In this document: piece after piece, positions 37,757 to 40,671 of the stretch
Layout: each line of letters begins with the position of its first letter
Position numbering within the stretch: position 1 is the stretch's first letter
Source: Thermodesulfovibrionales bacterium
Lineage (GTDB): Bacteria > Nitrospirota > Thermodesulfovibrionia > Thermodesulfovibrionales > UBA9159
Reading direction: 5' to 3'
DNA: 64,000 bases
Assembly: GCA_035686305.1 (NCBI GenBank)
Contig: DASRZP010000053.1
Location: 3,583 to 67,582 of the forward strand
The notes under the pieces: model-generated
What the model was told of the DNA's origin: nothing
The model's database searches: none
Seen by the model: only the letters and a program-made list of their open reading frames with translations
Position numbers and translations under genes: made by a program

Positions 37757-37868
37757 GCCAACTGAATCCTTTTTTTGAGCGCCCTTTTTGTTGTCGTAGA
37801 CGATTCTTCTCATTACCCGGCACAAAGGAGATTGTCAGAGTCCGGAGGAGAATATTATACTAACGCTT

Positions 37869-39020
37869 ATGGATGAACATGGACGCAAGGAGAAGGTGAT
37901 AACGATTACCTACGCTATCACTTCTTCTTCAGGAGAGATCGGGAAGATTGCGGAAGAAATAGCCCTGGAACAGACTGTCGAAGTTCCTGCGGAGGTCATT
38001 GGGGACGACAGGGTGCGAGAGGAGATTGTCGGCAAGGTCGTCTCGATTCACAGAACCGACAGTGAAACGGAAGAGCGCTGCATCGTTGAGATAGCCTATC
38101 CTGTTATCGTATCGAACTATGAGATCCCTCAGTTTCTCAACCTCCTGTACGGGAACATCTCGTTCAAGAGGGGAATCAGGATTGTCGACATGCACTTTCC
38201 GCCGGAATTCATCCGCACCTTCAGGGGCCCGAAGGTAGGGCTAGAGGGCATGAGAAGACTCATCGGCGTTTTCGACAGACCTCTCGTCTCTACTGCATTG
38301 AAACCGATGGGCAGATCGCCGGAAGAGCTGGCAGAAATGTGCTACCAATTTGCGCTCGGAGGAATCGATATCATCAAAGACGACCACAGTCTCGTGGATT
38401 TTCCCTTTTGCAGGTTTGAGGAGAGGGTTACGGAATGCATGAAGGCCATTGAGAGGGCGGAGGCGAAGACAGGCAAGAGAGCCCTTTACTTTCCGAACAT
38501 TACTGGCCGCTTCGAAAGGATCATGAACAATGTGGAATACGCGATGGAGAAGAACGTTGGAGGTCTCCTCGTCTCTCCTTTTGTCATGGGGCTCGACTGC
38601 GTGAGACATATTGCAGAACGTGACGGGATCGACAAACCCGTCATGTCCCATCCCTCATTGACCGGAATTTTTTTTGCAGATAGCGAGACCGGCATTGCTC
38701 CCGGTCTCCTCCTCGGTAAACTCTTTAGGCTCATCGGCATAGACTGTTCCGTCTTTCCGAATTTTGGAGGACGGTTCTCCTTTGACCGGCCGACCTGCCT
38801 CTCGATTGCCGGTGCCTTGAGGGAGGAGTTTTATCATATGAGAAGCGCCTTCCCGACGCCGGCCGGAGGAATGCGCCTCGAAAACATTGCTGAAATCCTG
38901 CACTTTTATGGTAAGGATATTATCCTCCTCATCGGGGGGGCGCTGTATCTCAAATCCCGTGACCTTCAGGAGGGCGCACGATATTTTTGCGAAAGGGTTT
39001 CGGCTGCTTGCAGGCAGTAA
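37869..39020 (+). CDS. RuBisCO-like protein (form IV RLP)
   Basis: RuBisCO large-subunit core: STALKPMGRS (KPKxG box with Lys177 replaced by Met) and ALGGIDIIKDDHSL (K201 and D203 kept, E204 replaced by His). TPAGGM and LLIGGA glycine motifs. These by-eye substitutions are incompatible with carboxylation. Confidence 0.85.
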   Translation: MDEHGRKEKVITITYAITSSSGEIGKIAEEIALEQTVEVPAEVIGDDRVREEIVGKVVSIHRTDSETEERCIVEIAYPVIVSNYEIPQFLNLLYGNISFKRGIRIVDMHFPPEFIRTFRGPKVGLEGMRRLIGVFDRPLVSTALKPMGRSPEELAEMCYQFALGGIDIIKDDHSLVDFPFCRFEERVTECMKAIERAEAKTGKRALYFPNITGRFERIMNNVEYAMEKNVGGLLVSPFVMGLDCVRHIAERDGIDKPVMSHPSLTGIFFADSETGIAPGLLLGKLFRLIGIDCSVFPNFGGRFSFDRPTCLSIAGALREEFYHMRSAFPTPAGGMRLENIAEILHFYGKDIILLIGGALYLKSRDLQEGARYFCERVSAACRQ

Positions 39021-39082
39021 GGTATTCTCGGAGAACTCCAGACTCTTTCTCGTCATTCTGTTTCGAACAGGGAGGTTGAGCG

Positions 39083-39466
39083 ATGGGCGTTATTCACCGT
39101 TTTACCGGAGAAGAGAATAATTTCAATTGGGAGGGCGCGATCCCCCGAGGCTATATCAAGGCAAACACGAAGGGCGCTGACGGCAAGGTCCTCATCGGCA
39201 AAACCGATGGAGCCCGGCAGTTTATTATCAGGTATTTCCGCGTAGAGCCCGGCGGCTGGACTGCCCTCGAGAACCATCCCCATGACCATGGGATCTTTAT
39301 CCTCCATGGGAGGGCCCGTGTTTTGCTTGGTAATGAAGAGGTAGAGGTGGGGCCCCGTGATGCCGTCTACATCAACCCTGACGAAGTCCATCAGCTGCGG
39401 CCCGTCGGGGACGAAGCCCTTGGTTTCCTCTGCATCGTGCCGCCGAAGGACAATGAGATTGGATGA
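39083..39466 (+). CDS. Cupin-domain protein
   Basis: GGAGG lies 7 nt before the ATG. Cupin motifs GGWTALENHPHDHGIFILHG and GPRDAVYINPDEVHQL. Confidence 0.85.
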   Translation: MGVIHRFTGEENNFNWEGAIPRGYIKANTKGADGKVLIGKTDGARQFIIRYFRVEPGGWTALENHPHDHGIFILHGRARVLLGNEEVEVGPRDAVYINPDEVHQLRPVGDEALGFLCIVPPKDNEIG

Positions 39467-39517: not shown

Positions 39518-39805
39518 TTGGTGATGAAAGGTCTTCTCAAAAACCTTGTCTTGAAGAACAGGGAACTCATATGGAAAGAAGCCGAGAAGATGCAAGGTTT
39601 TATGGCGCTCCTTATGAAGCCCAGGAACACGGGGGCAGGGTGGACGGAGGATGAGAAGAAGTCATTAAAGGCTCACCTGAAGCACCTTTCCGCTTTCCTT
39701 CCCGCACTCGTCATTTTTCTCTTGCCCGGCGGTTTCCTTCTCCTGCCCCTTCTTGCCATTGCCCTTGACAGGAGAAAAAAGAAGCGGCACGAGCTTGAAA
39801 AGTGA
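39518..39805 (+). CDS. Hypothetical small membrane protein
   Basis: An amphipathic N-half, one TM helix (LPALVIFLLPGGFLLLPLLAIAL), and a basic tail RRKKKRHELEK. Confidence 0.5.
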   Translation: MVMKGLLKNLVLKNRELIWKEAEKMQGFMALLMKPRNTGAGWTEDEKKSLKAHLKHLSAFLPALVIFLLPGGFLLLPLLAIALDRRKKKRHELEK

Positions 39806-39807
39806 TC

Positions 39808-40671
39808 TCAATGATCGGCGAGACTAAAGAGGGAGGTTCTCTTTCCATGCTCTCGTCCCCTGGGCTTCAGCGCCGTTATATATGCGGAAAAGACCATCGT
39901 CTCCACTCCCTCGCCAAAGTTCCAGCTTCTGATGATCTCGTCGCTGTTATCTTTATCCTGAACGACAATGTTGGTGAAGCCTGCCGCTGAAAGAATCCTT
40001 TTCAGTTCCTCAACGGGAACCGCTCCGGTAATTCAACCACTATAGGCATCTTCATTCTTCGTGATCTCTTCCGAAAATTCGCCTTTCTTCAGCACATCGG
40101 AAATCGCAAGCCTGCCTCCCGGTCTCAAGACTCGGTATGCTTCATTGAAAACGGCCTGTTTGTCAGGAGAGAGATTAACGACACAGTTGGAAATAATGAC
40201 ATCGATTGAAGACCCATGGAGGGGCAGACGCTCTATCTCCCCATGTCTGAACTCCACATTCTTCATCCCCAGCTTTTCCGCGTTTGCAGTCGCCTTTGCG
40301 ACCATCTCAGGTGTCATATCAACACCAATGACATGACCGTTTGGTCCCACCTTCATGGATGAGAGGAAGGCGTCAAAACCGGCGCCGCTCCCAAGGTCGA
40401 GAACCGTTTCCCCAGCCGTAAGCTCGGCAATGGCATGGGGATTTCCGCAGCCGAGGCCGAGGTTAGCCTCTCCGAGGCCCACCTTTAATTCCTCTTCGGA
40501 GTACCCAAGCATCTTTCCCGTCTCCAGCAGGCTTATCGTATTGATCTCAGGAGCACAGCAACGTGCAGAAGAAAGGCACGATGGTCCGCCTGCTGCCACG
40601 GCAGAGTAGCTCTTCAATACCAGCTGTTTAATCTTTGCTCTTTTTTGATCCATCTTTCCGATCTTCATCAT
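39808..40671 (-). CDS. arsM: ArsM-like SAM-dependent (arsenite) methyltransferase with in-frame UGA (probable selenocysteine at codon 213)
   Basis: N-terminal CC pair (ARCCAPE), GLGCGNP, VLDLGSGAGFD, and VIISNCVVNLSPDK. ...EDAYSG-TGA(40035-40033)-ITGAVPVEELKRILSAAGFTNIVVQ... continues in frame to TGA 39810-39808. The TGA aligns with the conserved ...GC[IV]AGA Cys of ArsM. Confidence 0.75.
40003..40022 (-). promoter_or_regulatory. Candidate bacterial SECIS hairpin 3' of the arsM UGA
   Basis: On the mRNA, 10 nt separate the UGA from a 7-bp stem CGGUUCC/GGAACUG (one G.U pair) closing a CGUUGA loop that contains GU. Confidence 0.45.

Follow-up and report, generated by a model that had tools for sequence, protein, structure and literature searches.

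The window analysed here, a stretch of 64,000 nucleotides, lies on one (C53) of the 147 contigs of a Thermodesulfovibrionales genome (Nitrospirota) of 3.23 Mb that is 97.7% complete; the nearest named homologues are from metagenome-assembled genomes of Nitrospirota, Thermodesulfovibrionia, Dissulfurispiraceae. Two adjacent genes on the forward strand of the window are the subject of this analysis: (i) a gene at 37869-39020 for a RuBisCO-like protein (RLP) of 383 amino acids, the only RuBisCO-family gene in the genome; and (ii) a gene at 39083-39466 for a cupin of 127 amino acids. The spacer between them (39021-39082) is 62 nt long and contains the ribosome-binding site of the cupin gene, GGGAGG at 39070-39075, which ends 7 nt ahead of the cupin ATG. 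The open reading frames and this site agree with the original prediction, which was made from the sequence of the window and placed a cupin gene with its own Shine-Dalgarno sequence 62 nt downstream of the RLP gene. A terminator scan lists no terminator-like site in the spacer, and the two genes are thus probably co-transcribed. The start codon of the RLP is uncertain, as the nearest Shine-Dalgarno sequence (GGAGGAG, 37844-37850) lies 18 nt from the ATG at 37869. The pair is very probably a known gene pair of the shunt from 5'-methylthioadenosine (MTA), a waste nucleoside, to isoprenoids (MTA-isoprenoid shunt) in a new lineage; the RLP is predicted to be a 5-methylthioribulose-1-phosphate 1,3-isomerase and the cupin a 1-methylthio-xylulose-5-phosphate methylsulfurylase.

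The RLP has the Pfam domains RuBisCO_large_N (PF02788) and RuBisCO_large (PF00016), both above cut-off. The top match in the PDB is 3qfw (E-value 1e-81, 278 bits), a Rhodopseudomonas RLP1-type protein; the sequences nearest to 3qfw in the genome collection are Rhodopseudomonas RLP1 genes. Lesser matches are MtnW (177-195 bits, 1e-56), form III RuBisCO (about 158 bits) and the Photo RLPs (123-137 bits, 1e-39). Alignment with form I and form II enzymes from named genomes showed that the RuBisCO residues K175, K201 and D203 are retained, that K177 is lost (KP-MG versus KPKLG, with Met at this position) and that E204 is replaced by His (KDDH), as had been read by eye in the original prediction. 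R295, H327 and K334 are likewise replaced, so that all five residues of the set K177, E204, R295, H327 and K334 of the carboxylating RuBisCOs (forms I-III) are missing. On comparison with Rhodopseudomonas RLP1, 3qfw and Roseospira, the clade signature N123, K175, KDDH, H294-P and FPN.GGRF was found in the RLP. Among 18 diverse relatives, the motifs TALKPMG, GG.D.IKDDH and FPN.GGRF show little or no variation; the latter two are shared with RLP1, which at the position of the Met in TALKPMG (position 177) has Gln. The residues support the assignment of the protein as a form IV RuBisCO-like protein of the DeepYkr type and not a carboxylase, as was first proposed. This corrects a likely database label: relatives of the RLP carry the annotation "ribulose-bisphosphate carboxylase large chain".

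The phylogenetic position of the RLP was determined from a tree of 67 sequences (IQ-TREE, careful run, UFBoot/SH-aLRT support). The references were form I, form II, RLP2 (Photo), and RLP1 from two R. palustris genomes and Lamprobacter; three YkrW structures, other Nitrospirota RuBisCO-family genes and relatives of the window RLP were included as further tips. A clade of 50 tips (support 100/99, branch length 1.0) contains all Rhodopseudomonas RLP1 sequences and the Rhodospirillaceae RLPs together with the window RLP, in line with the DeepYkr assignment. The sister of this clade is YkrW; the Photo proteins and forms I and II fall outside. Within the clade, the window RLP belongs to a Nitrospirota group of 12 members (100/99), whose sister (96/98) is a group of RLP::cupin fusions of about 525-570 amino acids, for example from Ca. 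Magnetobacterium casense, Planctomycetota and Firestonebacteria. The domain order of the fusions, RLP followed by cupin, is that of the window, where the two are separate genes.

The tree also bears on the assignment of the RLP as the 2,3-diketo-5-methylthiopentyl-1-phosphate enolase (YkrW/MtnW) of canonical methionine salvage. The top NCBIfam matches are indeed the MtnW models NF007095 and TIGR03332, but the scores are far under the cut-offs (263 versus 409 and 220 versus 513.6). The Bacillus YkrW/MtnW enolase (PDB 2zvi, 2oek) resembles the window RLP in its RuBisCO-like fold, its role in MTA salvage and its position as sister clade. It differs in the substrate, in having KDDE instead of KDDH, and in having Lys where the RLP has N123; this Lys is reportedly catalytic (the observation is attributed to Imker et al. 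2007). The RLP falls outside the YkrW clade, and searches of the host genome for the canonical pathway gave neither MtnK nor an MtnB-type gene. The MtnW name was rejected on score, tree and residues, and we give the enolase function hardly any credence.

The cupin belongs to the Pfam family Cupin_2 and matches the PDB entries 3ibm (E-value 2e-21) and 3jzv (E-value 4e-16), the latter being Rru_A2000 of R. rubrum. A sequence identical to 3jzv was not found in the genome collection (best match 74%), and Rhodopseudomonas RLP1, Roseospira and Phaeovibrio were used as named references instead of the R. rubrum locus. The alignment yielded a motif set W-x-G, RYF, GG, E-x-H-x-H-x-H, HQ and GF(L/F)C (GFLC in the window), which is common to the cupins beside Rhodopseudomonas RLP1 and Rhodospirillaceae RLPs, to 3ibm and 3jzv, and to the fused cupin domains. 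In fold, motifs and position directly 3' of a DeepYkr RLP the window cupin thus resembles Rru_A2000 and RPA2170 of R. palustris, and the suggestion that it is of the type partnering the RLP in the R. rubrum and R. palustris shunt was borne out. In the closest relatives, cupin orthologues with 70-89% identity are found directly 3' of the RLP gene. Cupins 80-83% identical to that of the window are also present in another Nitrospirota family (L323 7789-8172, which is G212; G147, G151, G179, G200), unlinked to the RLP of that family, which is itself about 42% identical to the window RLP. Such a difference in identity means either much stronger conservation of the cupin than of the RLP or horizontal movement of the cupin.

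The linkage of the two genes was assessed in related genomes. In a phylum sample of 400 genomes, the RLP gene is followed by the cupin gene on the same strand in 5/5 closest species-level relatives, and the order is also found in metagenomic relatives. The cupin is present in 71 of 80 Rhodopseudomonas-RLP1-like loci, and of the 79 cupin loci retrieved by similarity to Rru_A2000, 64 have a DeepYkr RLP within 6 kb. The adjacency of RLP and cupin is therefore not a matter of chance. Among loci resembling that of the window, 24/80 have a cupin, which in 15 of these 24 is fused to the C-terminus of the RLP; in 7 window-like loci the distance between mtnA and the RLP gene is 2-3 kb. Wherever in the phylum sample a genome has a cupin with 70% or more identity to that of the window, it also has a DeepYkr-clade RLP (10/10), with the two genes unlinked in half of these genomes (5/10). 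In two relatives the pair is flanked by CysK, or by a TrpB-like pyridoxal phosphate enzyme and a multi-rhodanese protein (L058 9660-10586; L057 6904-7947 and 10316-11452).

Adjacent RLP and cupin genes have been described before in R. palustris, where experiments in vivo and in vitro identified RLP1 (RPA2169) as a 5-methylthioribulose-1-phosphate 1,3-isomerase and the neighbouring cupin (RPA2170) as a methylsulfurylase (PMC5893883). The corresponding enzymes of R. rubrum are Rru_A1998 (RLP) and Rru_A2000 (1-methylthio-xylulose-5-phosphate methylsulfurylase) (PMC4334135); glutathione is the co-substrate of the R. rubrum methylsulfurylase. KEGG orthology (KOfam) profiles for both enzymes have been applied in a genome survey (PMC10663253). 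The window RLP shares with R. palustris RLP1 and Rru_A1998 the clade, the length (about 370-390 amino acids), the active-site signature, the downstream cupin and the presence of mtnP and mtnA in the genome; the host is, however, an anaerobe-type Nitrospirota and not a purple bacterium.

The genes for the remaining steps were sought in the whole genome. As noted originally, neither mtnP nor mtnA is present in the window; both are encoded on other contigs, where the only matches of the genome are found. Two MTA phosphorylase (mtnP) genes (C32:9146-9859 and C17:21712-22431) score above the curated cut-offs. One of these paralogues adjoins an adenine phosphoribosyltransferase gene (apt); with the S-methyl-5'-thioinosine phosphorylase model, too, the other scores above cut-off. 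The single MtnA gene scores 431 bits against a cut-off of 279. It overlaps a gene for an IspB-like polyprenyl-diphosphate synthase by 11 nt (C99:4641-6680; L004 1372-3412; L343), and this mtnA-ispB arrangement is kept in 28/30 genomes drawn from the whole order, whether or not they have an RLP; the tie between salvage of S-adenosylmethionine (SAM) by-products and the synthesis of isoprenoid or quinone side chains is thus conserved. The genome further contains speE (spermidine synthase), dxs and dxr. A search for mtnK gave no match in the host genome, and no class II aldolase (MtnB/Ald2), hence neither MtnB nor the aldolase of the dihydroxyacetone phosphate (DHAP) shunt, was found there, which leaves the RLP as the only recognised consumer of methylthioribulose-1-phosphate. 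With mtnP, mtnA and dxr present, the feeder steps and a consumer of 1-deoxy-xylulose-5-phosphate (DXP) exist.

Overall, we consider it likely that the pair represents, in a Nitrospirota version, both of the enzymes that characterise the MTA-isoprenoid shunt, which is independent of oxygen. MTA, formed for instance by spermidine synthase, would be converted by MtnP to adenine and 5-methylthioribose-1-phosphate, and the latter by MtnA to 5-methylthioribulose-1-phosphate. The RLP, using the metal site of carbamylated Lys and Asp that it appears to retain from RuBisCO, would then shift the carbonyl from C2 to C4, yielding 1-methylthio-xylulose-5-phosphate (and 1-methylthio-ribulose-5-phosphate). 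In the step assigned to the cupin, which would be metal-dependent, a thiol would attack the methylthio sulfur of the alpha-methylthio ketone, giving DXP and a methyl disulfide that would yield methanethiol. DXP could enter the methylerythritol phosphate (MEP) pathway via dxr, because this gene is present. We infer the substrates and products of the pair from homology at 36-40% identity to characterised enzymes, and likewise the fates of DXP and methanethiol in the host. The assignment extends a shunt gene pair best known from purple non-sulfur bacteria to an anaerobe-type member of the Nitrospirota.

Several observations weigh against the MTA-isoprenoid shunt assignment. The RLP is just 36-40% identical to the characterised RLP1 and groups with the fusions in a Nitrospirota and fusion subclade (96/98) separate from the proteobacterial enzymes. 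The cupin is about 35-45% identical to Rru_A2000 and RPA2170 and shorter, and its scores against Rru_A2000 and against TM1459, a Thermotoga cupin from an unrelated context, are equal, so that similarity alone does not discriminate; TM1459, however, lacks the motif set and differs at E63, H67 and Q104. The subgroup of the window cupin ends in PPKDNEIG and is without the C-terminal RD(R/K)P that is present in every other aligned cupin whose C-terminus was available, including the fusions, in which it reads RDRP. Many genomes of the same order have full-signature cupins, often after a Zn-dehydrogenase gene, and no DeepYkr RLP, which means that the cupin family is not tied to this RLP. Downstream of the closest relative of the RLP (67% identity), the place of the cupin is taken by an LsrF-like thiolase and a Zn-dehydrogenase. 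The presence of dxs makes the supply of DXP independent of the RLP-cupin pair. Finally, gshA, gshB and gshF were not found in the 97.7% complete genome (GCS2-type ligases were not searched for), nor was an O-acetylhomoserine sulfhydrylase for the recapture of methanethiol. Judged from this gene content, neither the thiol co-substrate nor what becomes of methanethiol can be as in R. rubrum: glutathione is probably not made by the organism and probably not the thiol used here. Homologues of CysK and of the TrpB-like enzyme are encoded elsewhere in the host genome and could act as captors of methanethiol; the CysK, TrpB-like and multi-rhodanese proteins that flank the pair in relatives are candidates for the handling of methanethiol or a persulfide. 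The apparent lack of glutathione and of O-acetylhomoserine sulfhydrylase makes the organism well suited to asking which thiol the methylsulfurylase uses and where methanethiol goes.

The LsrF-like and dehydrogenase genes raise the possibility that the same two steps mainly feed a catabolic, oxidative-thiolytic route, isoprenoid supply being secondary, which on the gene content we regard as possible though doubtful. In such a route, a TDH-like Zn-dehydrogenase would oxidise a 1-deoxy (or 1-methylthio) pentulose-5-phosphate to a 2,4-diketone of the 3-hydroxy-5-phosphonooxypentane-2,4-dione type (P-HPD), which an LsrF-like thiolase would cleave with CoA to DHAP and acetyl-CoA. The required genes are adjacent in the host genome: on contig C134 (4136-7151; L333) genes for an MBL-fold hydrolase, a TDH-like Zn-dehydrogenase and a thiolase similar to LsrF stand side by side, and the thiolase scores 412 bits against a cut-off of 297 with the model for 3-hydroxy-5-phosphonooxypentane-2,4-dione thiolase (NF006081). 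Lsr quorum-sensing genes are absent among the neighbours on this 10-kb contig. This dehydrogenase-thiolase pair is, however, unlinked to the RLP-cupin pair, and the LsrF-like gene could serve another role. The linkage is seen in relatives. In the closest relative of the RLP the order is RLP, LsrF-like thiolase (NF006081, 406 bits versus 297) and TDH-like Zn-dehydrogenase (L053 8001-11363; L060 4001-7147), with a cupin 87% identical to that of the window 760 kb away. In three genomes of one genus of a neighbouring family, an RLP::cupin fusion of 528 amino acids is directly followed, 38 nt on, by an LsrF-like gene (L051 7920-10432; L021; G134:C19:4392-6882); at L051 a class II aldolase-SDR fusion (712 amino acids) lies about 2.8 kb further along. 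Zn-dehydrogenase-cupin operons were found in 4/8 sampled genomes of the same family or order without a DeepYkr-clade RLP (L341 2009-4489; L342 2259-3724; L340 2380-4178; L336 2079-3723), and in three of the four nothing matched the RuBisCO family. The cupins of these operons carry the complete set of methylsulfurylase-type motifs, RD(K/R)P among them. The lack of a class II aldolase in the host and the presence of mtnA in 99/101 genomes of the order, most of them without an RLP, also fit this route. Outside the order, though, the link with LsrF-like or dehydrogenase genes is rare (1/80, 0/80 and 1/79 RLP or cupin loci), and a literature search gave no paper that ties LsrF to MTA or to 5-deoxyribulose.

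These observations lead us to propose, tentatively, that the order has an undescribed, oxygen-independent route for the salvage of MTA and 5'-deoxyadenosine of which the RLP-cupin pair is one entry. The Zn-dehydrogenase would make a 2,4-diketone, the cupin would strip the methylthio group, and the LsrF-like thiolase would release DHAP and acetyl-CoA, steps that the gene pairings fit. The alpha-methylthio ketone is proposed to come from the RLP or, in genomes without RLP, from the dehydrogenase, and for 5-deoxyribulose-1-phosphate the dehydrogenase and thiolase alone would suffice. Such a route would explain the shifting pairings (RLP-cupin, RLP-LsrF-ADH, RLP::cupin-LsrF and ADH-cupin, in which ADH is the Zn-dehydrogenase), the near-universal mtnA in an order whose genomes mostly are without RLP and of which the host has no class II aldolase, and the absence both of genes for glutathione synthesis and of an enzyme to recapture methanethiol. 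If the dehydrogenase/LsrF-like linkage is functional, it would define a new means by which anaerobes bring by-products of SAM back into central metabolism.

In principle, the main substrate of the RLP could also be 5-deoxyribulose-1-phosphate, derived from the radical-SAM by-product 5'-deoxyadenosine and isomerised directly to DXP; we judge this improbable, and the same holds for its corollary that the cupin is accessory and needed only for the MTA-derived analogue. The chemistry would be formally identical, and many genomes of the phylum sample have a DeepYkr-clade RLP and no detectable cupin. For example, in family f25 the RLP was found in 46/64 and the cupin in 13/64 genomes, and in f22 in 5/6 and 0/6, respectively. 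The match of one MTA phosphorylase paralogue to the S-methyl-5'-thioinosine phosphorylase model, in addition, leaves the nucleoside specificity unclear. In the host and its nearest relatives, however, RLP and cupin form a tight pair, and the sister group has them as fusions, which argues that the cupin step is integral. Furthermore, the literature searched yielded no assay of this sugar with any RLP.

The pair is preceded by a ModE-like gene and genes for two TupA-like binding proteins, TupB and an ABC ATPase, and is followed on the opposite strand by an ArsM-type methyltransferase; Pfam and NCBIfam matches agree with the position between tup genes and a methyltransferase given in the original prediction. 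From this setting, and from the missing mtnP and mtnA, it had been argued that the substrate might be a different one. A new substrate tied to tungstate uptake or to arsenic/selenium methylation is very unlikely in our view. Its support is physical proximity in one genome only, and tup, ArsM, ArsR and efflux pump genes are not found beside the pair in any of the seven relatives examined (0/7), where the pair sits among unrelated genes. As the flanking genes are not conserved, the tupABC/ArsM setting is no evidence for a different substrate, and we rejected both a common operon with tupABC and a link in function to ArsM/ArsR. The feeder genes lie elsewhere in the genome, and the RPA2169/RPA2170 precedent counters the idea as well. 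In addition, ArsM lies on the opposite strand, and tupC and the RLP gene are separated by a gap of 112 nt with T-runs (37757-37868, forward strand), so that the pair is probably a transcription unit separate from the tup genes. The tungstate and arsenic genes are very probably unrelated neighbours of the pair, and their context is a red herring.

The tupC-RLP gap contains a promoter-like hexamer pair at 37832-37861 (10/12 matches), to which no weight was given because it overlaps the only Shine-Dalgarno-like sequence. A riboswitch or structured leader 5' of the RLP gene was likewise dismissed, as no Rfam family matched and the fold was no better than that of shuffled sequence. On the other side, 51 nt past the cupin gene, an open reading frame of 95 amino acids (39518-39805, forward strand) encodes a C-terminal transmembrane stretch and weakly matches LETM1-related biofilm proteins at their C-terminus (E-value 1.5e-11); it adjoins the pair in no relative and was not considered part of the system. 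The frame of the ArsM-type methyltransferase stops at a TGA (40033-40671, reverse strand, within the region 39808-40671) and runs on beyond it to about 39830; the protein is probably a selenocysteine-containing arsenite methyltransferase.

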